Counted from the stretch's first letter, positions 4,197 to 61,163 are shown. The stretch: DNA of 64,000 nt from Desulfobacteraceae bacterium 4572_35.1 (GCA_002084705.1 NBLX01000005.1:3695-67694); one strand, 5' to 3'. The notes: generated from the sequence alone by a model not told the origin. Made by a program: numbers and translations.

Positions 4197-4706
4197 ATGC
4201 TTAGTATTCTGAATAAAATTCGCCGCACCGGACATCTCACCGAGGCTGTTGAAGCGGATGAACAGGTGGTAAAATTGGGGAAGGCATGTCAGCGGGAGAT
4301 CGCAGTTAGCTTTGGTGGCAGCTTGGCAATTCGGATGGTTGACGCCGGTTCTTGTAATGGATGTGAACTGGAGATGCACGCAGTAAATAACAGTTTTTAT
4401 GATATCGAGCGCTACGGTATCCACTTTGTGGCATCGCCACGTCATGCCGATATGTTGCTGGTGACGGGTGTTGTTTCACGCCATATGCAGGCGGCGTTGA
4501 AGCGTACTTACGCTGCTGTTCCAGCTCCGAAACTGGTGGTTGCGATGGGTGATTGCGCTGCCAACGGTGGCGAGTTTGGCGTGAGTTACGCTAGTTGCGG
4601 AGCTGTGGAAAATGTGATTCCGGTAGATGCGGTAATTCCCGGGTGCCCTCCTACTCCGTTGCAACTGTTGCAGGGGATATTGACGCTGTTGCAGAAAAAA
4701 CCGTAG
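4197..4706 (+). CDS. Ehr small subunit (NuoB/HyfI-like Fe-S protein)
   Basis: DAGSCNGCELE, ASPRHAD, GDCA and PGCPP motifs; ATG at 4197 after GGAG. Confidence 0.9.
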   Translation: MLSILNKIRRTGHLTEAVEADEQVVKLGKACQREIAVSFGGSLAIRMVDAGSCNGCELEMHAVNNSFYDIERYGIHFVASPRHADMLLVTGVVSRHMQAALKRTYAAVPAPKLVVAMGDCAANGGEFGVSYASCGAVENVIPVDAVIPGCPPTPLQLLQGILTLLQKKP

Positions 4707-48771: not shown

Positions 48772-48988
48772 GGTGTTTGTTTCCTTTATTGATAAATGGT
48801 TGATATGCAGCCGCTACTTTAGTGAGGTTGGGCGAGAAGTGCAAGGGTGGTTTATCGGAAAGGTTGTTTCGTGGTTTGTTAGCTTTGTTGCGTGAAATAC
48901 TTTTTTGCTAACTATGATCTGATAGTGGTAAACTTTAGCTTTGTTTTGTAACTACTAGATGAAGAAAATAATTTCCAAAGAGGGTTAT

Positions 48989-49950
48989 ATGGCTATTAAA
49001 CCGATTGAATACGAAAACGGCGCCTGCCGTATGATCGACCAGCGTCTGTTGCCTGGTGAAGAGGTGTGGATTGATTACACCGATTATCAGGGAGTTGCGC
49101 AGGCGATTAAAACTATGGTGGTACGCGGCGCGCCGGCCATTGGAGTCGCTGCTGCTTTTGGTGCTGCATTTGCTGCCGCAGCTATTGATGTGGATAATTT
49201 TACCGATTTTGAATCCCGGTTTGTGGACTGTTGTGATGTTCTGGCAGCAACCCGTCCCACGGCAGTAAACCTGTTCTGGTCGTTGGATAGGATGCAGAAG
49301 GTGGCGCGGCAGCAGCGTCATTTGCCAATAGATCAGTTGCAAAAAAAATTGCTCAACGAAGCTATTGAGATTGCAGCAGAAGATGAACAGATAAATCGCA
49401 ATATGGGGCAATATGGGCAGCAATTGTTGCCACATCGGGGTCGTATTTTGACCCACTGTAATGCTGGGGCGTTAGCTACCGGTGGCTATGGAACTGCCCT
49501 CGGTGTTATCCGTGCGGCGGTGGAGGCAGGGAAACAGCTTGAGGTTTATGCTGATGAGACGCGGCCATTCTGGCAGGGAGCACGGTTGACTGCTTGGGAA
49601 TTGCATCAGGACAATATCTCAGTAACGGTTATCTGTGACAATATGGCTGGATATTTGATGCAACAGGGTAAAATTGACGCTGTTATCGTCGGCGCTGATC
49701 GCATTGCCGCCAACGGCGATGTTGCCAATAAAATTGGTACTTACACCGTAGCTGTGCTTGCTAAAGAGCACGTACCCATTGTGGCGACAAGCAATTAACT
49801 CCCGATGGGGTGGCGGTGTATAATCCGGCATTTGATGTGACTCCAGAGCGACTGGTGACAGCAATTATTACCGAGTATGGAGTGGCGTACAGATCAGGAT
49901 CGGAAGGATATATACCTCAACTCAAGAGATTGGTAGCGAAGGGTTATTGA
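48989..49950 (+). pseudogene. mtnA: Methylthioribose-1-phosphate isomerase, disrupted by deletion plus frameshift near 49772 (or assembly error)
   Basis: VRGAPAIG, THCNAG, ANKIGT; after KEH the frame ends, and [24 protein letters not shown]...IITEYG continues in another frame from 49774 to TGA at 49950. Confidence 0.85.
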
Positions 49951-49951
49951 G

Positions 49952-52900
49952 ATGAATCATATGGTAGCTGCTTTATCGCCGCTTTTGCAGAACGTTGATC
50001 CTGAACAGAAACAGGAATTGGAACGGGTAGTTGCCGAATGTGGTTTTCATGAAGTAGAAAAAACGGCAACCAACCTGTATGAGTTGACTGCTGCGTTGCA
50101 AGATGAGCGGTTGGTTATTGCTGCAGCTCAAACGGCGCTGGAATGTTCCGATCCGGATATGGCGTTGAATGGCCTGGAGAGGTGCTGTGATAACCTTGAT
50201 ATAGCGAATGTTGTTGCAAGTTTATGTCTGCCAAGTTATCGGCGGCAACTGTTGTTGATACTCGGAGCTTCATCTTTCCTCACATCAATTTTATGCCGCA
50301 GTGATAATTATTTAGCTAAGTTGTTTGTCGATGGTGAGGTGGAGCGTAAGAAAGATACCTCCACAATGCGCAGCGAGTTGGAACAGTTGTTGTCGCCTCA
50401 GGCTGATTTTTCTGAGCTGCAACGCTGCCTACGTCGTTTCAAATACAGGGAAGTGTTGCGTATTGCTGCTAGAGATCTCAGTGCGGTTGCCGATCTGGTT
50501 GAGGTGACGGCGGAGCTGTCCAGTCTGGCGGCGGCGACGTTGCAGGTGGCGTGTAGTTATTGCCAAAACCTGATGCAGCAGGAGTATGGTAAACCGTTGT
50601 TGGATGCTGAGTCTGGTGCCCAAGGACAGGAAGCTGTTTTTACTGTGTTGGGAATGGGCAAGCTTGGTGGCTGGGAGCTTAACTTCTCATCGGATATCGA
50701 TCTGATCTATTTTTATTCATCCACAAAAGGTCAAACATCAGGAATATCTGACGGTGCCGGTGGGGTGAAAAATCAACTCGAGCTGCATCAATATTTTATT
50801 AAACTGGCAGAAAAGTTAACCCGTGCCATTGGTCAGGTTACCGAAGATGGCTTTGTCTTTCGTGTTGATCTCGATCTGCGTCCAGAGGGGCGAAGTGGTG
50901 AAATGGCGTGCTCCCTCGCTGCTGCTGAAACCTATTATGAGGGCTGGGGGCAGAACTGGGAGCGTTGCGCTATGATGAAGGCGCGTCCTGTTGCTGGCAG
51001 CATTGAGCTGGGTGAGCAGTTGTTGCAGACGTTGCAGCCATTCATTTATCGGCGTTATCACGATTACGGTATGGTTGAAGATCTGAAGCAGATGAAGCAG
51101 AAGATAGATCATCACCAGAGGGGACAATATGGTGCAAATGAAAATTTAAAGCTGGGCAAAGGGTGTGTGCGTGAAATTGAATTTTTTACTCAGGCGTTAC
51201 AGATGGTTTATGCCGGTAAAAATCCGCAAGTGCGGGAACGTAGCACTTTGAAAGCATTGTTGTTGTTGCGCGATGCTGGTTTTCTTCCAGCCGAAGAGGC
51301 AGAAAATTTGCGCCAGGCGTATATCTTTTTGCGTACCGTTGAGCACCGAATACAGGTTGTTCAAGAGCGTCAGACCCATAATTTGCCAACCTCTCAGCAG
51401 GAGCGTCACACTTTGGCTCGCCGCTGTGGTTTTTCCTCTACTGATGAATTTATGGCTGCCCTTGAACAGCATCGTCAAGCTGTAACTACGATTTATCGCA
51501 GCCTGTTTTATGCTGGTGAAGATGAGGTCGTGGATGAAATAAAACCAGTTGTTCGATTTTTACTCGACGACGAAGGTGATAGCGACCTGGCCAAAGATGT
51601 GTTGGAGGAACACGGATTTCGTGATCCAGATCGTGCTTATGAAATTTTGGTACGTTTGCGCACTGGTCATGTGGGTGCTCACATGACTGCCCAAGTGCGG
51701 CGCCATTTTGAACGTGCTCTTCCTCTCATGATTCAGGAGATACTCGATTCTCCAGAGCCGGACATGGCGCTGAATAATCTCGAAGAATTTCTGTTGCGAG
51801 CCCGCGGTCAGGGGACGTTTTATGTGCTGCTGGCCGAAAATAACCGGATTAATCATCTCCTTGTCGCCCTGTTTGGTACCAGCAAATTTTTATCACATAT
51901 TTTTATTCAGCGACCAGAACTGCTCGATTCCCTGGTCTCTAGTTATTATGTGGTCGGGGCAAAAAGTTTGGACGATATGTGTGCCGATCTCAAGGTGCAG
52001 ATGCAACAGGCTCGCGATTATGAAGATAAACTGGATATTTTACGCCGTTTTCGTAATGAGGAGTTTCTACGTATAGCCCTTAACGATTTGCGTGGCGATG
52101 TATTGCAGGGGCGTAGTTTGGAGCAGTTGAGCTTCCTCGCAATATCTTGTTTGCGTGAAGCTGTAATTATAGCCAGAGACGAATTAATCCACCGCTTTGG
52201 TTTGCCTTTTTGCAAAACAGGATCTGGACAGTGGCGTGAGGCCGAGTTTGCCATTTTGGGGATGGGCAAGTTGGGTGGCATGGAGTTGAACTATCATTCA
52301 GATCTCGATATTATTTTTATGTATAGCGGTCATGGGGAAAATCAACCAATATCCGGTACCGAGGTTGCGCGTTTTAAGCAGCTTACCAATCAGGAATATT
52401 TCTCCAAGTTAGCGCAACGGATAATTTCGGTATTAACTATAGCTACCCGCGAAGGGAGGGTGTACGAGATAGATACTCGCTTGCGTCCATCCGGAAATCA
52501 GGGACCGCTGGTTACCAGTTTGAGCGCATATGAAAATTATCACCAGTCGTCGGCGCAATTGTGGGAGCGCCAGGCCTTGACTAAGGCTAAGGTAGTGGTT
52601 GGTAATCCAATAATAGTTAGGCAGATTAACCAGATCAACAAGCGGATAACTTGGGAGAAACCATTACCAGGGGAACTACAAGCTGAGATATATCGGTTGC
52701 GCGGGCGGATGGAGCGCGAGATAGCCCAGGAGAGCACAGAGAAGGTTAATATTAAAACCGGACGCGGTGGAATGGTAGATGTCGAGTTTTTGGTGCAGTA
52801 TCTGCAGCTGTTGCATGGCGCCGAATTTGAGAAAATTAGACTGCCTAACACGTTAGAGGCGCTGCGGGCAATAAAAAATCAGGGTTTGTTGCCAATTGAT

Positions 52901-53149
52901 GAAGCAGATGCACTTAATGATGGCTACAAGTTTTTACGCCGCTTGGAAAATAAACTACGCCTGATTCACGACCAGTCCTTTAATCAACTAGAAACCGATA
53001 GACGTACACTGCGTAAGTTGGCACTTCATCTCGGCTACAGTGGACAAACAGCAAAACCGGAGCAGCAATTGGCGGCAGATTATAAGGGAATTACAGAGCG
53101 GATTCGTGAAATATTTGATAGTTACTTGATGCCAACGGATGGTTGTTGA
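49952..53149 (+). CDS. glnE: Bifunctional glutamine synthetase adenylyltransferase/deadenylase
   Basis: Two GMGKLGGxELNxxSDxD nucleotidyltransferase domains. Confidence 0.96.
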   Translation: MNHMVAALSPLLQNVDPEQKQELERVVAECGFHEVEKTATNLYELTAALQDERLVIAAAQTALECSDPDMALNGLERCCDNLDIANVVASLCLPSYRRQLLLILGASSFLTSILCRSDNYLAKLFVDGEVERKKDTSTMRSELEQLLSPQADFSELQRCLRRFKYREVLRIAARDLSAVADLVEVTAELSSLAAATLQVACSYCQNLMQQEYGKPLLDAESGAQGQEAVFTVLGMGKLGGWELNFSSDIDLIYFYSSTKGQTSGISDGAGGVKNQLELHQYFIKLAEKLTRAIGQVTEDGFVFRVDLDLRPEGRSGEMACSLAAAETYYEGWGQNWERCAMMKARPVAGSIELGEQLLQTLQPFIYRRYHDYGMVEDLKQMKQKIDHHQRGQYGANENLKLGKGCVREIEFFTQALQMVYAGKNPQVRERSTLKALLLLRDAGFLPAEEAENLRQAYIFLRTVEHRIQVVQERQTHNLPTSQQERHTLARRCGFSSTDEFMAALEQHRQAVTTIYRSLFYAGEDEVVDEIKPVVRFLLDDEGDSDLAKDVLEEHGFRDPDRAYEILVRLRTGHVGAHMTAQVRRHFERALPLMIQEILDSPEPDMALNNLEEFLLRARGQGTFYVLLAENNRINHLLVALFGTSKFLSHIFIQRPELLDSLVSSYYVVGAKSLDDMCADLKVQMQQARDYEDKLDILRRFRNEEFLRIALNDLRGDVLQGRSLEQLSFLAISCLREAVIIARDELIHRFGLPFCKTGSGQWREAEFAILGMGKLGGMELNYHSDLDIIFMYSGHGENQPISGTEVARFKQLTNQEYFSKLAQRIISVLTIATREGRVYEIDTRLRPSGNQGPLVTSLSAYENYHQSSAQLWERQALTKAKVVVGNPIIVRQINQINKRITWEKPLPGELQAEIYRLRGRMEREIAQESTEKVNIKTGRGGMVDVEFLVQYLQLLHGAEFEKIRLPNTLEALRAIKNQGLLPIDEADALNDGYKFLRRLENKLRLIHDQSFNQLETDRRTLRKLALHLGYSGQTAKPEQQLAADYKGITERIREIFDSYLMPTDGC

Positions 53150-53170
53150 TGTCGTTGCAACGCAGCAAAT

Positions 53171-53199
53171 TTGACTTTCATTACTGGTTCTGCTAGTTT
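53171..53199 (+). promoter_or_regulatory. sigma70 promoter with extended -10
   Basis: TTGACT-N17-TAGTTT preceded by TG. Confidence 0.6.
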
Positions 53200-53229
53200 G
53201 CTGCGATAAGTGGCGGCGTTCTGCCAGAA

Positions 53230-53357
53230 CGTTCCGACCATAGACCCGCTTGTGAGGTGGACCAAGTAGACCAGTTCTGCTCGGGACGAACCCTCTCTCT
53301 CTGGAGCAGCACCGGCTTAAAGTGGTCCACTTTAAGATTGGGTGCGGGTGGCTCCAT
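53230..53357 (+). ncRNA. Candidate structured RNA (nested stems with internal loops), family unassigned
   Basis: ACCCGC/GCGGGT, GTGGACCA/TGGTCCAC, CTGCTC/GAGCAG and GGG/CCC nested pairings; GC-rich island in an AT-rich spacer. Confidence 0.5.
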
Positions 53358-53619
53358 CTCGATAAAAATAATTGTTTCGCAGTCTGAGTGCAGGTTGTAC
53401 TCGCCCCATTAGGTTTCTGATCTCTTTGTTGATGTTGGGAATTGTCAGTATCTTTCTCCATTCTTTTTTATTTAATGAGAAAAGTTCCTGCCTCTGAGTT
53501 TTTACCTGTACGGCAAAAGTTTTATTTGCTTTTACAGTGTAACTATTGTGCTGCAATATTTTTTGCAGTTATTCATAAGGTTTAATATGAAAAATAGTAT
53601 AAAAAAGGAGTCTTAATAA

Positions 53620-54873
53620 ATGGACAGCAGTCCTGAAAAAATAGTACCGAAGATGCAAGTGCGTAATCTATACAAGGTTTTTGGCTCTGCTCCAGATGAA
53701 GCTATCGAGATGTTAAAGCAGGGAGCAGCTAAAGACGAAATCCTGGAAAAAACCAGACAAAGTGTCGGTTTGGCTGATGTCAGCTTTGACGTCTATGATG
53801 GTGAGATCCTAGTCATTATGGGTCTTTCTGGAAGCGGTAAATCCACTTTGGTTCGTTGCCTGAATCGCCTGATTGAACCAACCAGTGGAACTATCACTAT
53901 AGATGATTGTGATATCACTCGTTTGAACAGTGAGGGATTACGCAATCTGCGTCGTAAAAAGTTTGGCATGGTTTTTCAACATTTTGCTTTGTTTCCCCAT
54001 CGAACAGTACAGGAAAATGCAGAGTTTGGTCTTGACGTACAAGGGATGGAAGCGGGAGAACGTGCCGAAAAAGCTCGTGAGGCTCTAAAGCAGGTTGGTC
54101 TAGAAGGTTGGGAAGATAGCTATCCAGATCAACTTTCTGGTGGTATGCAACAGCGGGTAGGTTTGGCGCGTGGGTTGGCGGTAGATCCCGACATTTTACT
54201 TATGGACGAGGCGTTCAGTGCTCTCGACCCTTTGATCCGTCGTGACATGCAGCATGAACTTGTTGAATTACAGGATAAATTTAAAAAAACCATAATATTC
54301 ATAACCCACGATCTAGATGAAGCACTAGAGATTGGAGATCGTATCATTCTTATGAAAGATGGGCATATTGTCCAGTTGGGGACAGCTGAAGAGATATTGA
54401 CCCAGCCAGCTAATGAATATGTCTCCCGTTTTGTCGAAAGTGTCGATATGACCAAGATACTCACAGCCAGTGCAGTGATGGTGCGGGCGAAAACAGTAGC
54501 TTATCCCAAAGATGGGTTGCACACCATGTTGCGTAAAATGCGCGACGTGGGGATAAGCTCAATTTTTGTGGTTAATCGCGACAAAACACTGCGTGGTTTG
54601 GTGACAGCGCAGGCGTGTAATGATGCTTTGAAGTCTGGTACCAAGACTATAGATGACATACTGGTTGAGGATCTTCCGACAACCACGCCTGATGAGCCTG
54701 TTACCAATCTTATTGGTCGCATGGCCGAAGCTAATATGCCCTTACCAGTAGTCAGCGTAGATGGTAAGTTGCATGGTGTGGTGGTTCGTGGTTCCCTGCT
54801 GGCAGGAATTGCCGATGGTGGTTTTGACCCGGAAGTGGCAATGGAGAATTGCAGTGACGAGGTGGCGCAATGA
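53620..54873 (+). CDS. proV: Glycine betaine/proline ABC transporter ATPase with CBS domains
   Basis: GLSGSGKS, LSGGMQQR, DEAFSALDPLIR. Confidence 0.94.
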   Translation: MDSSPEKIVPKMQVRNLYKVFGSAPDEAIEMLKQGAAKDEILEKTRQSVGLADVSFDVYDGEILVIMGLSGSGKSTLVRCLNRLIEPTSGTITIDDCDITRLNSEGLRNLRRKKFGMVFQHFALFPHRTVQENAEFGLDVQGMEAGERAEKAREALKQVGLEGWEDSYPDQLSGGMQQRVGLARGLAVDPDILLMDEAFSALDPLIRRDMQHELVELQDKFKKTIIFITHDLDEALEIGDRIILMKDGHIVQLGTAEEILTQPANEYVSRFVESVDMTKILTASAVMVRAKTVAYPKDGLHTMLRKMRDVGISSIFVVNRDKTLRGLVTAQACNDALKSGTKTIDDILVEDLPTTTPDEPVTNLIGRMAEANMPLPVVSVDGKLHGVVVRGSLLAGIADGGFDPEVAMENCSDEVAQ

Positions 54874-55706
54874 ATATTTCTAAATTTCCATTAGCGAAAT
54901 ATATTGATACCCTCCTGGATTTTTTAACTGACCACCTGGCATGGTTTACCAAGGGTATCAGTGAGGTAATGAGCACTGGAATGGATTATGCCGTTGATGC
55001 TCTGCTTGCGCTGCCGAGTTGGTTGTTTATTCTTATTGTTGCTGCGCTTGCCTACAAAGTTGTTGGCAAGAGGATGGCGTTGGGGACTCTGCTGGGGCTC
55101 TGTTTTCTTGAAAATTTACATTTGTGGGTGCCAACAATCGAGACTTTGGTGCTGGTGCTTATTGCTACCATTGTTGCGGTCGCTATTGGAATTCCGTTGG
55201 GTATTTTGGCGGCAATTTTTGATGGCGCTCATCGGGTAATTATGCCATTGCTCGACTTTATGCAAACCATGCCAGCCTTCGTTTATCTAATTCCGGCGAT
55301 CCCGTTTTTTGGTCTGGGTCCCGTTGCGGCTATTTTTTCTACGGTAATTTTTGCCATGCCGCCGGCGATTCGTCTTACTAGCTTGGGGATACGTCAGGTA
55401 CCAGCAGATTTGGTAGAAGCTGCGGATGCCTATGGCTGCGATCGACGGCAAAAATTATTGAAATTGCAATTACCCATAGCTTTACCCACCATCATGGCAG
55501 GAGTTAATCAGACCATCATGTTGGCGCTGTCAATGGTTGTCATCGCTGCTATGATCGGTGCTGGTGGTTTAGGGGGCGAAGTGTGGAAGGCTATACAGCG
55601 CCTGCAACCTGGTAAAGGATTTGAAGCGGGGATTGGTATCGTTATCCTGGCGATGATTCTCGACCGTTTTACTAGCAAAGTTGGGCGCGGTAAGGTTGCT
55701 GAATAG
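54870..55706 (+). CDS. proW: Glycine betaine/proline ABC transporter permease
   Basis: LDFMQTMPAFVYLIP, GVNQTIMLALSMVV. Confidence 0.94.
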   Translation: MNISKFPLAKYIDTLLDFLTDHLAWFTKGISEVMSTGMDYAVDALLALPSWLFILIVAALAYKVVGKRMALGTLLGLCFLENLHLWVPTIETLVLVLIATIVAVAIGIPLGILAAIFDGAHRVIMPLLDFMQTMPAFVYLIPAIPFFGLGPVAAIFSTVIFAMPPAIRLTSLGIRQVPADLVEAADAYGCDRRQKLLKLQLPIALPTIMAGVNQTIMLALSMVVIAAMIGAGGLGGEVWKAIQRLQPGKGFEAGIGIVILAMILDRFTSKVGRGKVAE

Positions 55707-55729
55707 TTTTAATTTTAAGGAGAAGTGAG

Positions 55730-56599
55730 ATGAGTAAACGTAGAGGAACGATTGTTGCTGGTTTATGTCTGCTGCTGATTATGGTAGCTGGAGTGTGTGT
55801 ACAACCGGCTCAGGCAAGTAAAGGTAAGGTGAAGCTGGTTTATGTTGAGTGGTCGTGTGCCACGGCGTCTGCCAATGTTGTCAAGGCGGTACTGGAAGAG
55901 AAACTTGGCTATGATGTGAAATTGATTCCCGTTGCTGCGGCTGCCATGTGGCAAGCGGTAGCTACTGGAGCCGCTGATGGCTTTACCACTGCATGGTTGC
56001 CAACAACCCATGCTACCTATCTGGATGGGGTAAAAGACGAGGTTGAAGATCTTGGCCCCAACCTTGAGGGGACAAAGATTGGTCTCGTTGTTCCAGATTA
56101 TGTAAGCATAGATTCAATTGACCAGATGAAGGATAACAAGAAGAAGTTTCGTGGTCGTATCGTGGGGATAGATCCCGGTGCCGGCATAATGATGAAAACT
56201 GAAAAAGCTATCGAAGATTATCAGCTCACCCGTTTTCGCTTGATAGAGGGTTCTGGTGCGACTATGACGGCGGCGCTCAAAGATGCCATCCGCAACAAGG
56301 AATGGATTGCGGTAACTGGTTGGACACCACACTGGATGTTTGGTCGTTGGCAGCTCAAGTATTTGAGTGATCCGCAAAATGTTTATGGTGGAGCTGAATT
56401 TATTAACACCATCGTGCGCAAGGGCTTAAAAGAGGATATGCCTGAGGTGTATGCGGTGCTGGATAATTTCCACTGGACTCCGGCTGAGCTGCAGCAGGTT
56501 ATGGGTATGAATCAGCAGGAGGATAGCCAACCATACGAAAACGCCAAGCGCTGGGTTAACGAGCATCCAGAATTGGTGAATAGCTGGCTGGCTAAATAG
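55730..56599 (+). CDS. proX: Glycine betaine ABC transporter substrate-binding protein (OpuAC-like)
   Basis: AWLPTTH, GIDPGAG, GWTPHWMF. Confidence 0.92.
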   Translation: MSKRRGTIVAGLCLLLIMVAGVCVQPAQASKGKVKLVYVEWSCATASANVVKAVLEEKLGYDVKLIPVAAAAMWQAVATGAADGFTTAWLPTTHATYLDGVKDEVEDLGPNLEGTKIGLVVPDYVSIDSIDQMKDNKKKFRGRIVGIDPGAGIMMKTEKAIEDYQLTRFRLIEGSGATMTAALKDAIRNKEWIAVTGWTPHWMFGRWQLKYLSDPQNVYGGAEFINTIVRKGLKEDMPEVYAVLDNFHWTPAELQQVMGMNQQEDSQPYENAKRWVNEHPELVNSWLAK

Positions 56600-57722: not shown

Positions 57723-59114
57723 CTACTTGGGATTGCCTGAACGGTAAGTGGTCGGCTTGGATTTTTTATCCAGACTGATCGTTTCTTCCCACTCGTTCCA
57801 CAGAACTGCGCCATCCATGGTGCCGAAAGGTTTATACCAAAGTTCAACGGTTACGTCCATCTCACGCTCTTCGGCAACTTGTTTGCCATCAGCGCCTTTT
57901 TCAGTAACCGGGTAGAAGATGTCGAAACGCTCTTCAACTTCTTTACCTGGGGCAAGACCGGTATCCTCTACGATAGAACTCTTCTCGTAGGGACCACGAC
58001 CCATATTGTTACCACGTGCCATCAACTTGGGTGTTGGCATGTAGATAATTTCTTCTTCAAATAACTCATCGTCTTCTTCAGTTTCCGCTTTTACCGACAG
58101 AACCAGTCGGTTAGGGGTCGGTCAGCCATCAGGGATAGAGTGACCGGAGCGGTTAACCATTTTTACTTTGACAACGGCTTTTGGTTTGAGAGTGCTGCCG
58201 TCTAACCATTGAGATACATAGCTTTCAACTTTGAAGTCAATTGCCATCTTCTGCATGGTCTCGTCGCTGTAGCTGAGAATTTTATGTCCGAGGCCACTTT
58301 TCTCCATGTGACATTCCTGACAGCTTTCTTGACCACCTTCGGCACGGTAGGCCCACATGTAGCTACCGTAAGCGGTTGCACATTGTGTCGGGTTTTCCAA
58401 CTCCAGGTTGGGTCCCATACCGTGACATTGACCACAGAAAATTGATTCGTCCATAATGAGGCTGCGCTTCATTTTGGTGAAAGTCTCATCTTCGTGTTCG
58501 CCGTCGTTGAAGCCATATACGGTATCGTGTTGCGGATAGCCGTCGGTCCACTTGTGGGTGATTGCCATACGGTTGTGGCACACCAGGCAGTTGATGTTAA
58601 GGCTGGTAAGGGTTTTCTGGTGCTTGTCGCGTATTGCGATAGCTTTTTTGTCATCAGGATTTTTAAGGGCTTTTTTCGCATTGGCGTACCACTCATTCAG
58701 GGTGTCGGCCAATTCAACAGCTACTTCGTCGGTGGCATCTGCCAACTGTGGCAGATGGCACTTCATGCAGCCCATCCAGTGTTCAACTTTTATGTCTTTA
58801 GTGCTTTTAACTCCAGAGTATTCCCATGACATAAAACCATTTTTCATGGCGGTGATCATGGTTGCTGCGGCACGACCAGTGCCGTAGATAGAGCGGGCAT
58901 GCGGTGAAGCCGCCCAATCGTCGTGAGCATCTTCATGGCAGTCGATACAGCCGGTTGAATCGTACATGTCGATCAACTCTTGGACTGTTTTAGCTTTGCC
59001 CTTGGTGCCGACAATTGTGCCGTCGCGACCAACGCCGGCGCCAATGGCAAATGCCATCGTAGCACTGAGCAGTAAAGCTAAAGCAGCAACGCCGATAACT
59101 TTAAATTGTTTCAT
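57723..59114 (-). CDS. extKL: ExtKL-like pentaheme cytochrome c selenoprotein, 463 aa with Sec at the UGA 58122-58124
   Basis: Five CxxCH motifs; HSIPDG-UGA-PTPNRLVLSV runs in frame into the 57723-58040 ORF; SECIS-like hairpin follows. Confidence 0.88.
58093..58121 (-). promoter_or_regulatory. Bacterial SECIS-like element
   Basis: UGA, then CCGACCCCUA, then ACCGAC-UGGUUCU-GUCGGU (6-bp stem, G-containing loop). Confidence 0.75.
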
Positions 59115-59333
59115 CGCTATATCCTATTGTTTAGGTGGAAAAATAAGCCCCTGATGAGAATCAGGAGCTTATTTTCTGTTGCTATCTAATGCCATCTGTT
59201 TTCTCCTTGCGTTTGTCAATGAAAATGAACAAATAAAAAAGGTAAGTACGTTTTTGGTCTCCTGTCCAGCTGGACAAGAGACCAAAATGTTAAATGCGAA
59301 TAATATTATATACAGATAATATATTCTTGTCTA

Positions 59334-61163
59334 TTAGAACATTACATCCATGGTCAGATATGCTTGATCCATAGAATCGATTGGTGCCCAGAATTGAGCA
59401 TTCAAAGGATCGTCCAGATCATCTACATCAACAGGAGCGCCTAACCAGTTGCCACTGCCAGTATATTCGTATTCGTAGTGTTGGTAGCCAATACGCATGA
59501 ACGCTTTACACTTCTCACTCAGCAGCTCGCCAACAGGCAGGTCGTAGATGGCGTAGATCTCACCAACGTGACCGCGAGTAGCCAATTTAGCTTGAGTCAT
59601 GTCGTCGTGACCGGGGGTCATAGAGATCCAGTTTTTGGTGCCGTAGTTGTACTCTAAACCAACTTTAAGACCAAGATCGTCAAGATCGTAGCGGACGCCG
59701 GCATATACACTGTAACCATCTTTTTGGCCTGGATTTTCCCACCAAGAGCCGAGTAGGGTGGAACCCATCTCATCAACGCCATCAGGATCGGTGCGGCTCC
59801 AACCAGCAGATACGAAGTAGTTGAGGTCAGCAACTTTGTCCATGTATACTGCAGTGGTATGGAAGATGTCGCCGAGATTTTCTGTGTCTAAGATATTGTT
59901 TCCGGTACCCATGGCAATCTCCAGTGGGTTAGCGAAGGTAACGCCATCGGGTACGTTGACAATATTTGATGCCAAGAAAGATTGAATATTAGCGAAGCGG
60001 TCACCCTTGTTGATGATGTCCCAGCTGAATCCGCCGAAGTCCATGTCGTCCAGATTGTTGCCATTCTCAAGGGGACCTGCTTCGAAGCCACGACCGTAGC
60101 AGAAACGGATTTTGCTGTAGCCCATGAAGTCGAAGGGGTTGTCGAATACCATCCCTAAGGATGCGCCGTCAAAAGCATAGTCCATGAAGCTGATGGGAGT
60201 TGCCATCCGCTTGCCGGTGCCTAAACGGATGTGTGAAGGAGGTCCATCGGTGGTGGGACGACGACCAATGGAGAACCATACGGGCATTCCACCAATATTA
60301 GTCCAGTTGATATAGGCGCGATCTACCATCAATGAGCTGTCGTTTGGTTGGCGGCTGGTTTGCCCATCCATCTCGGGGAAGCTATTGAAGTAGTAAGGGC
60401 CGTTAACTGTGGGGTTAGATGTGTTGCCCCACGATTTATACATGGCCAGGCGACCTTTAAAATTGAGGTTTTCAGCAACTTGGAACTTCATCCCTAGACG
60501 GAAACGGTTGGTGAACAGGGTGTCGTTCTTGTAGTTGTTTTTTGGAGTCATGCTGTAAGTGTTGTTCATACCTAGACCCGGAAATGATGGGTCTGTTGGT
60601 GAGTTTGTTATCATAGTGTAAGCTTGTTGAGTAGCACCGGCAATTTGTGCGTTATATCCGGCTGACCCTCTAGCCATTCCCATGCCACGAAGCTGCATAT
60701 CTGCACCCATTTGTGCTAAGGACATTGGTAGGTTTTCCATCATCCCTTTGCGTTCAGCACCAGTGTAATTGCCCATCAATCCAACAATTTGTGGAACGTT
60801 CATTGGCTGACCAAAAGCGGTCATGACATTGCTCATGTCATTAACTGCGTTAGCGATATCCATTGCACCCCAGTAAGCCTTGGTGTCGGTATCACTGTAA
60901 TCAAGACGGGCACGGTAGTCGCCAAAGAACTCAAAGCGAGCGCGGTCGTCCCAAGTGGCAGACTTGTCTTCCAGCAGCTCTACAGAATCAGCATTATCGT
61001 CGCTGGCGTCCTGTACTTCTGCAACCTGTGCTTGTAGCTCTTGTAGTTGCTGAGTTAGCATTTCGATCTGCTTGGCGAGATCTGCTGTGCTGGGCGCTGC
61101 GAAAGCGCATGTTGGCACGAGCATAAGAGCCGCCAGGAACAAACCTAGTGTTCTTTTCACCAT
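59334..61163 (-). CDS. DUF3373-like outer-membrane (porin-type) protein
   Basis: Signal peptide, N-terminal coiled coil, GDYRAR, SIGRRPTTDGPP, C-terminal Phe. Confidence 0.75.
   Translation of the reverse strand: MVKRTLGLFLAALMLVPTCAFAAPSTADLAKQIEMLTQQLQELQAQVAEVQDASDDNADSVELLEDKSATWDDRARFEFFGDYRARLDYSDTDTKAYWGAMDIANAVNDMSNVMTAFGQPMNVPQIVGLMGNYTGAERKGMMENLPMSLAQMGADMQLRGMGMARGSAGYNAQIAGATQQAYTMITNSPTDPSFPGLGMNNTYSMTPKNNYKNDTLFTNRFRLGMKFQVAENLNFKGRLAMYKSWGNTSNPTVNGPYYFNSFPEMDGQTSRQPNDSSLMVDRAYINWTNIGGMPVWFSIGRRPTTDGPPSHIRLGTGKRMATPISFMDYAFDGASLGMVFDNPFDFMGYSKIRFCYGRGFEAGPLENGNNLDDMDFGGFSWDIINKGDRFANIQSFLASNIVNVPDGVTFANPLEIAMGTGNNILDTENLGDIFHTTAVYMDKVADLNYFVSAGWSRTDPDGVDEMGSTLLGSWWENPGQKDGYSVYAGVRYDLDDLGLKVGLEYNYGTKNWISMTPGHDDMTQAKLATRGHVGEIYAIYDLPVGELLSEKCKAFMRIGYQHYEYEYTGSGNWLGAPVDVDDLDDPLNAQFWAPIDSMDQAYLTMDVMF

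Follow-up and report, generated by a model that had tools for sequence, protein, structure and literature searches.

The intergenic region between glnE and a proVWX-type transporter operon of Desulfobacteraceae bacterium 4572_35.1 carries one copy of a conserved structured RNA family of about 150 nt. In the window, i.e. the whole 64,000-nt stretch of DNA that was analysed, this copy occupies positions 53210-53357, and proV begins 263 nt 3' of it on the same strand. A covariance model built from 104 copies (model R2) finds the family in 76 of the 151 genomes of the Desulfuromonadales, one of them (G066) through a weak partial match (E 6e-4). Its secondary structure is established by covariation, its position and orientation relative to its gene partners are constant, and 107 of the 109 genome members with readable downstream DNA precede osmolyte-type or KamA-family aminomutase genes. 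Judged by sequence comparison, the family is real and apparently undescribed, and it is a strong riboswitch candidate for an osmolyte regulon.

The RNA family and its gene partners

The features of the locus are as follows.

49952..53149, plus strand: glnE, the upstream neighbour; placed outside the system because upstream genes vary across the family
53171..53199, plus strand: predicted sigma70-type promoter, with -35 TTGACT (53171), a 17-nt spacer and a TG-extended -10 TAGTTT (53194; TG at 53191)
53210..53241, plus strand: P1, the 5' hairpin, with two bulges (GTGGCGGCGTTC / GAACG-TT-CCG-A-CCAT); both-side changes at 10 of 11 pairs in 104 sequences
53244..53249, plus strand: ACCCGC, 5' strand of the long-range pairing; predicted to form a pseudoknot or alternative helix with 53344-53349
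53254..53295, plus strand: P2, comprising a GAGG/CCTC helix, a standard kink-turn (k-turn) sequence and the hairpin P2b
53258-53261, 53285-53287 and 53288-53290: non-bulged strand, bulge (GAC) and GAA of the k-turn, with 3b.3n = A.G
53265-53281, plus strand: P2b hairpin with a C-rich loop; covaries at 6 of 6 pairs
53302..53357, plus strand: P3, comprising a TGGAGC/GCTCCA closing helix, a GCACC/GGGTGC inner helix and the apical hairpin CTTAAAGTG/CACTTTAAG
53316-53336, plus strand: P3 apical hairpin CTTAAAGTG/CACTTTAAG; both-side changes at 7 of 7 pairs
53344..53349, plus strand: GCGGGT, which lies in the internal loop of P3 and supplies the 3' strand of the long-range pairing
53361..53403, plus strand: A-rich spacer (53361-53371), then P4, a small hairpin (GAGTGCA-GGT-TGTACTC, 53386-53402); the expression platform is predicted to start here
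53404..53500, plus strand: pyrimidine-rich tract, putative Rho loading region
53620..54873, plus strand: proV, betaine/proline/choline ABC transporter ATPase (TIGR01186, above cut-off)
54870..55706, plus strand: proW-type permease (ChoW/ProW models, below their cut-offs)
55730..56599, plus strand: proX/OpuAC-type binding protein (PF04069 match)

With glnE, the RNA element and the proVWX-type transporter (53620-56599) all on the plus strand, the element is not the orphan without a following ORF that a preliminary description of this DNA had reported. G006, the closest relative, has a motif 90% identical to this one, and there the order is glnE, motif, ablA-ablB-kamA-proVWX; ablA, ablB and kamA are missing from the window locus, and the motif stands directly before proV. 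Elsewhere in the window, an mtnA ORF (48959-49798, 279 aa) has a truncated or frameshifted look, its model match ending at 269 of 358, and the minus strand at 57723-61163 holds multiheme cytochrome-like ORFs with CxxCH motifs together with a large outer-membrane-like ORF. Multiheme cytochrome-like ORFs are ordinary for metal-reducing Desulfuromonadales.

The number of recognised carriers grew with the search: 15 of 61 related genomes by BLAST, 60 of the 151 genomes of the order with a model built from 16 copies (model R1), and the 76 given above. Genomes hold up to three copies. A search of the present genome for further copies found three (on C99, C119 and C110); two of them stand before separate proVWX operons, and the one on C119 before a KamA-family gene. 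Model R2 finds no member among 75 genomes from the class's other families, which presumably include Geobacter, and model R1 finds none in 150 other genomes across the phylum; four weak phylum matches of R2 (E 0.007-0.04) were dropped because they lie inside ORFs. When 185,579 species genomes were scanned by pattern, 93 matches were obtained. Of these, 76 pass R1, and all 76 carry Desulfuromonadales-type or broader deltaproteobacterial record titles; the other 17, with titles that name Actinomycetes and other distant taxa, did not pass the model and were set aside. The same kind of scan in metagenomes gave 78 matches, with 67 passing R2 and 11 failing and discarded. It should be noted that the search patterns recover 42 of 64 known members, so that distant members may be missed. 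Viral contigs yielded no member by pattern scan, and a plasmid collection no match by blastn. The family now comprises about 165 distinct sequences, with a median pairwise identity of 57%; its members are kin, and counts of members are not independent of each other. Two metagenome-assembled genome (MAG) records titled Geobacteraceae carry the motif (L151 and L169), and cultured carriers, by record title, include Malonomonas rubra DSM 5091, in which each main subtype is present once, and Desulfuromusa kysingii DSM 7343.

The motif does not score at or above the gathering threshold of any Rfam 15 family. When the region 52600-54200 was compared with Rfam 15 at E values up to 10, four weak matches were obtained, none of them over the motif, and 20 loci of diverged members likewise gave no Rfam match. 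The 4227 models scanned presumably included DUF1646. In the full-text literature searched, which excluded subscription journals, no description of the motif was found.

Among 113 distinct genome members, the first recognised gene within 900 nt is proV in 55, a KamA-family gene of clade A in 30 or clade B in 10, ablA in 9, a polar amino-acid ABC binding protein in 2, ehuB in 1 and another gene in 2, with 4 cases too short to read; this tally excludes L017, which runs off the end of its contig, as well as a duplicate of L004. Strictly annotated osmolyte genes account for 65 of the 109 readable members and the KamA clades for 40. The 53 new metagenome members have the same partner genes in 47 of 48 readable cases. 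No K+ importer, Na+/H+ antiporter or cell-wall enzyme was found downstream of any genome or metagenome member.

Two main subtypes are distinguished in alignment A3 (104 rows). Type I (44 rows), to which the window copy belongs, precedes kamA/ablA in 41 of 46 readable cases, and type II (60 rows) precedes proV in 54 of 63. This split by gene would suit a switch that senses the osmolyte itself, with glycine betaine (or N-acetyl-beta-lysine, for the synthesis subtype) turning uptake or synthesis off, in which case the two subtypes may have different ligands; betaine has been proposed for the unrelated proX motif (PMC8632094). Against such an arrangement, the subtypes cross over, the window copy being a type I member before proV and type II members standing before ablA/kamA eight times and before ehuB once, and the osmolyte substrates are chemically different. 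We regard this sub-case of riboswitch control as quite unlikely. A third subtype with a shortened P2 was also seen (L074:998-1161, L076:556-716, L077:5633-5792 and L018:1396-1540), in each case before proV; a GCAA tetraloop caps the shortened P2 in three of the four.

The ablA copies pass TIGR03820, with ablB (TIGR03827) as the following gene. KamA clades A and B pass the KamA subfamily model only, and share operons with ablAB, proVWX or mscS; from these operons we infer an osmolyte role, and the two radical-SAM clades behind 40 members are thus candidates for new osmolyte aminomutases. The clades (for example L074:5132-6199 for A and L074:6766-8043 for B) are about 34% identical to each other and 38-39% identical to AblA, and fall below the AblA, glutamate and arginine aminomutase cut-offs. 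The clade A gene behind the second copy of the present genome (G000:C119:8649-9464, equivalent to L016:1887-2702) encodes 271 aa compared with about 358 aa in its relatives and has an unrelated-looking tail, i.e. it is either truncated or misassembled. In six members, the first ORF behind the motif is an rpsU (S21) paralog, with kamA/ablA beyond it; the paralog was called by TIGR00030 in L023 (1102-1356) and by similar sequence in L025, L079, L069, L139 and L180.

The association between motif and osmolyte genes is not reciprocal: 40 further ablAB/proVWX loci, hand-picked and mostly from motif-negative genomes, all lack the motif. A MarR-family gene lies upstream in 12 of these 40 loci versus one nearby match among 94 motif loci, and no such gene was found in the present genome. 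This conserved gene precedes ablA or proV (L253:1175-1774, L231:3775-4368 and ten more of L231-L270) and, typed to family level, is possibly an analogue of CosR/EctR, the MarR repressors that control compatible-solute operons elsewhere (PMC7876524). These repressors do the same regulatory job on proVWX and osmolyte synthesis genes, but as proteins acting on DNA rather than as RNA. Comparison of the 40 motif-less loci with known riboswitches returned tRNAs only. The present genome itself has a third proV operon without the motif (G000:C52, before proV at 4575, minus strand); its ProV is 83% identical to a family-linked copy, and it is preceded by a TTTGAC-type promoter-like site and a long AT-rich leader.

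Upstream of the motif, the ORFs are heterogeneous, with various Pfam families in 70 of 96 cases and none in 26; they occur on either strand (same strand in 48 of 96), and none encodes a transposase. This bears on the main idea of the preliminary description, that the element is a domesticated bridge or seek RNA of the IS110 family. Bridge RNA consists of a 5' stem-loop and two stem-loops with internal loops (PMC11208160), and the family shares with that of IS621 a similar length, a 5' hairpin followed by two looped stems and a sigma70 promoter, i.e. a generic outline. In one member (G043:C71), an IS110 gene does occur about 2 kb downstream, beyond the kamA gene, and IS110 genes are present in 67 of the 151 genomes of the order. 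On the other side, no IS110 transposase (PF01548 match) was found in the 87%-complete genome under study, and model R2, run with filters off on 30 IS110 loci of the order, gave at best 11.8 bits (E 0.09), a comparison made with this family's model and not with a bridge-RNA model. The family has no recombinase, element ends, varied insertion sites or variable guide loop; it is fixed to osmolyte genes rather than following insertion sites, and is missing from the plasmid and viral sets described above. Its first internal loop is a k-turn that is invariant in 44 of 44 type I rows with different flanks, as opposed to the poorly conserved first loop of bridge RNA. The bridge-RNA idea is therefore almost certainly wrong.

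Conserved secondary structure

The window region folds better than 198 of 200 shuffled sequences (z -2.73). In a MAFFT alignment of 104 sequences, 91.7% of the cells assigned to P1, P2b, P3 and the long-range pairing are paired. Changes on both sides of a pair occur in 653 cells, compared with 224 in column shuffles and 81-156 when the partners are slid, and affect 29 of 38 pairs. Counted as events on a tree built from the same alignment, there are 37 both-side changes at 12 pairs versus 0-7 in slid controls. The pairs with the highest mutual information lie in P3a, P2b, P1 and the P3 apical hairpin. Covariation in the aligned sequences thus supports three helical domains. Within P3, the closing helix shows an A-U/G-C swap at 53305/53353 in 47 of 104 sequences, and the first two bases of GCGGGT can also close the inner helix.

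The ACCCGC/GCGGGT pairing is conserved beyond chance, five of its positions being pairable in 102-104 of the 104 aligned members. The spacing between CCCGC and GCGGG is 93-99 nt in nearly all members. One compensatory change was counted (in L070), along with wobbles, and another was recognised by eye in the diverged L018; the pattern searches fixed the CCCGC/GCGGG bases, and no pattern was involved in finding at least 46 of the 104 rows. Because this pairing crosses P3a, it would be a pseudoknot, and we consider that it probably forms one; the inner helix of P3 competes with the last two pairs of CCCGC/GCGGG.

In type I, P2 reads as a standard k-turn, defined by a 3-nt bulge, G.A and A.G pairs and a flanking canonical stem (PMC4382518). 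All 44 type I rows have its GGA and GAA unchanged, with the 3-nt bulge in six forms, and the new metagenome type I members keep GAA in 26 of 27 cases, the remaining one having GAT. The standard k-turn is missing from the 60 type II rows. An A.G pair at 3b.3n is described as the best ion-folding k-turn sequence, which folds in metal ions alone, and G at 3n as typical of riboswitch k-turns (PMC4382518).

All of the strings listed in the preliminary description are present in the window, including ACCCGC (53244) and GCGGGT (53344), CTGCTC (53277) and GAGCAG (53304), GGGACGAACCC (53283), GTGGACCA (53257) and TGGTCCAC (53323), and CTTAAAGTG (53316) and CACTTTAAG (53328). A GC-rich rod like the one assembled from them is indeed the predicted minimum-energy fold of the window copy (-65.0 kcal/mol versus -58.7 kcal/mol for the family fold, as computed with ViennaRNA, which scores neither pseudoknot nor k-turn), but it is not the conserved fold of the family. 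Its CTGCTC/GAGCAG helix is not conserved, with 0 compensatory events versus 75 breaks on the tree. The GTGGACCA/TGGTCCAC helix is mostly pairable in type I (33-44 of 44 rows at seven positions, 1 of 44 at the eighth) but lacks support from covariation, with 2 compensatory events versus 118 breaks family-wide; in the predicted ensemble it prevails in 3 of 44 type I rows, the window copy among them, and in 0 of 60 type II rows, and may be an alternative state. The CTTAAAGTG/CACTTTAAG hairpin, which had been described as a competitor of the rod, is itself part of the conserved fold.

A conserved upstream ORF was also considered. An SD-plus-start pattern occurs inside the motif in 45 of 112 members; the candidate was rejected because loop indels of 1-2 nt break the frames, and no such pattern exists inside the window copy.

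Predicted promoter, tail and proposed mode of action

The promoter proposed in the preliminary description (TTGACT-N17-TAGTTT) is supported as a prediction by its recurrence in the family: the pattern TTG-N-TAnnnT with a spacer of 16-18 nt lies upstream of 64 of 109 members, compared with 1.6% of shuffled sequences, and among these 64 the spacer is 17 nt in 53 and TG precedes the -10 in 33. Transcription would start at about 53205-53207. A simple promoter scan did not list this promoter; it listed 53531-53560 (1 found, 1.3 expected), where another promoter-like sequence (TTTACA-18-AATATT with TG) lies 60 nt ahead of proV; this second site is at chance level in the scan and could bypass the leader if real. 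The inverted repeat said to frame the promoter, CGCAGCAAA (53161) and TTTGCTGCG (53197), is present, but at 9 bp it is within chance, repeats of this kind having 59 start positions in the window and occurring in 2 of 109 members. An operator role for it was rejected, as the repeat is private to the window copy.

The same promoter pattern occurs at 13 of 37 motif-less osmolyte loci, so that the promoter alone may give osmotic control. In eight of 112 members (L023, L025, L079, L081, L085, L105, L125 and L164), the extended -10 region contains TATGTTAG, which is common to these eight leaders and the E. coli proV upstream sequence (L379:337-349). We take this E. coli region to be the osmo-inducible proU promoter. 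In addition, 28 type I promoters have TTGC at -35, as does the E. coli sequence. A blastn comparison of proV with E. coli gave no match.

Alternatively, the leader may be protein-bound or purely structural, binding a regulator or the ribosome (through S21) or protecting the mRNA 5' end, with the promoter providing osmotic control. These promoter data, the rpsU paralog in six members and the lack of a recognised expression platform fit such a leader, and k-turns often bind proteins (PMC4382518). By contrast, no protein gene is consistently linked to the motif, its k-turn sequence is of the protein-independent folding type, and a 150-nt fold of three domains with a long-range pairing would exceed the needs of 5'-end protection. 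We hold this explanation to be doubtful, while treating it as a serious contender.

Downstream of P3, the family tails are 48% A at +20 to +40. P4 has a median of -8.8 kcal/mol across the family and is weakly supported (mean z -0.6). At +60 to +80, C exceeds G in 79 of 98 members; the window tail departs from this, being U-rich with C about equal to G (16 versus 17). No intrinsic terminator was found in the window tail. Terminator-like sites occur in 30 of 98 tails versus 11 in shuffles, and some members may use intrinsic termination. The distance from P3 to the first SD-plus-start has a median of about 180 nt (10th-90th percentile 147-236, 98 members). No conserved anti-aptamer pairing with the tail was detected, the largest mean gain being -0.5 +/- 0.2 kcal/mol, and the evidence on the expression platform is therefore mixed.

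The promoter, the long gap before the next gene and the terminator-like tails could also be read as the marks of an independent small RNA that is released by termination in the tail and acts in trans. Such a role is very unlikely, as the motif without exception shares its strand with a narrow gene set and lies upstream of it, and moves with osmolyte operons between unrelated neighbourhoods.

Position, orientation, mobility with the operons and exchange with the MarR-family gene all argue that the element is, with high probability, a cis-acting leader of osmolyte operons. It has the general feature of a riboswitch, i.e. a conserved, covarying structure 5' of a coherent gene set, and the conserved core and ion-folding k-turn lead us to favour, with some reserve, riboswitch-type control by one or other of the candidate signals, by which the genes would be held down until osmotic stress. 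From the conserved TTGAC-N17-TGnTAnnnT promoter, RNA polymerase would begin transcription about 5 nt upstream of P1. P1, P2 and P3 would then fold, and the P2 kink and the CCCGC/GCGGG pairing would pack them into a tertiary core. The fold would decide whether the roughly 180-nt tail is read through, by exposing the pyrimidine-rich tract to Rho or hiding it. Control is probably by Rho-dependent termination, since the ribosome site is too far away for sequestration and most members have no intrinsic terminator; a rho gene is present in this genome. The suggestion in the preliminary description of a conformational switch controlling osmolyte uptake is therefore upheld as regards osmolyte control, which may extend to synthesis, but with a conserved fold that differs from the proposed rod.

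Candidate signals and known regulators

Since the downstream genes serve either the uptake of betaine or ectoine or the synthesis of N-acetyl-beta-lysine, the core would read a general osmotic-state signal rather than the product of one pathway. Our first guess, a tentative one placed ahead of c-di-AMP and an osmolyte, is the rise in cytoplasmic K+ or ionic strength after upshock. It is preferred because no member precedes a K+ importer or Na+/H+ antiporter, and an ON switch for K+ would avoid K+ importers; the trigger proposed for the build-up of osmolytes is K+ together with glutamate (PMC7876524). Na+ is less likely, given that no Na+ transporter is found among the partners, unlike the case of the DUF1646 motif.

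A related possibility is a second, structurally unrelated class of c-di-AMP riboswitch that turns osmolyte genes off. The genome encodes a diadenylate cyclase domain (PF02457), as do 148 of the 151 genomes of the order, while the known c-di-AMP riboswitch (RF00379) is found in only 7. All seven of these switches (L185-L191) precede K+-uptake-like genes, which, from sequence features, we take to be TrkA-like in four cases and Kup-like in three; the new motif never does, nor does it precede cell-wall enzymes. Three genomes (G069, G118 and G153) carry both RF00379 and the new motif, which suggests a division of labour. Elsewhere, RF00379 (the ydaO/yuaA motif) controls osmotic-stress genes, and ablA/kamA are among its targets in other phyla (PMC9337991, PMC5737381). 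It resembles the present family as a long structured 5' leader with a pseudoknot, but there is no model match and no similarity between the two. We consider c-di-AMP, also a sub-case of riboswitch control, an unlikely signal.

Returning to riboswitch control in general, ablA/kamA genes are known to be under such control in other phyla (PMC9337991), and several described RNAs invite comparison. The Na+-I riboswitch (DUF1646 motif) is likewise an ion-sensing leader and occasionally occurs upstream of ablA, eam and dapB (PMC9337991), but its main targets, Na+ transporters and ATP synthases, are absent from the genes of this family; it also generally uses intrinsic terminators, and no Rfam match links the two. 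The proX motif (SRC-29-1, Spiribacter; PMC8632094) and the one named opuB (SRC-50-1, Enterobacteriaceae; PMC11109978) are riboswitch candidates before betaine-type ABC transporter genes. They belong to other taxa and, in the accessible text of these papers, which sets them apart from the present family, are not described before ablA/kamA; according to the same text, a stem sequesters the ribosome site in each of them, whereas in the present family that site is about 180 nt away. Five Geobacter riboswitch candidates are counted in the accessible text of PMC11109978, and the family may overlap with them, as it occurs in the two MAG records titled Geobacteraceae. The k-turn aptamers (SAM-I, lysine, glycine and cobalamin) share a standard k-turn with G at 3n in the P2 arm and a long-range pairing (PMC4382518), but the present RNA has three consecutive hairpin domains and no closed multi-way junction, with the k-turn in type I only. 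Resemblances to SAM-I, which stem from the k-turn, and to glycine, T-box, ykkC and HDV-like RNAs were dropped for lack of an Rfam match.

Taken as a whole, our most specific proposal is a new riboswitch class that would read K+ or ionic strength through a k-turn/pseudoknot fold and switch on the osmolyte regulon, replacing MarR (CosR-type) repressors in a Gram-negative order; in this complete form it is speculative and rather improbable. If true, it would flag the two KamA-family clades as makers of unrecognised compatible solutes.

It has long been asked how bacteria convert osmotic stress into gene expression when no dedicated sensor protein is involved. We know of no RNA sensor for K+ or an organic osmolyte. 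RNA sensors have been described for Na+, Li+ and c-di-AMP (PMC9337991, PMC9646797). The family offers about 165 sequences, a structure backed by covariation and cultured carriers, and its tight gene set narrows the list of ligands to a handful. Whatever the signal, the RNA would stand for an aptamer class not described before or for a new type of osmo-responsive leader. In addition, 40 genes for uncharacterised radical-SAM aminomutases, being preceded by the motif, stand out as coding for probable osmolyte enzymes.
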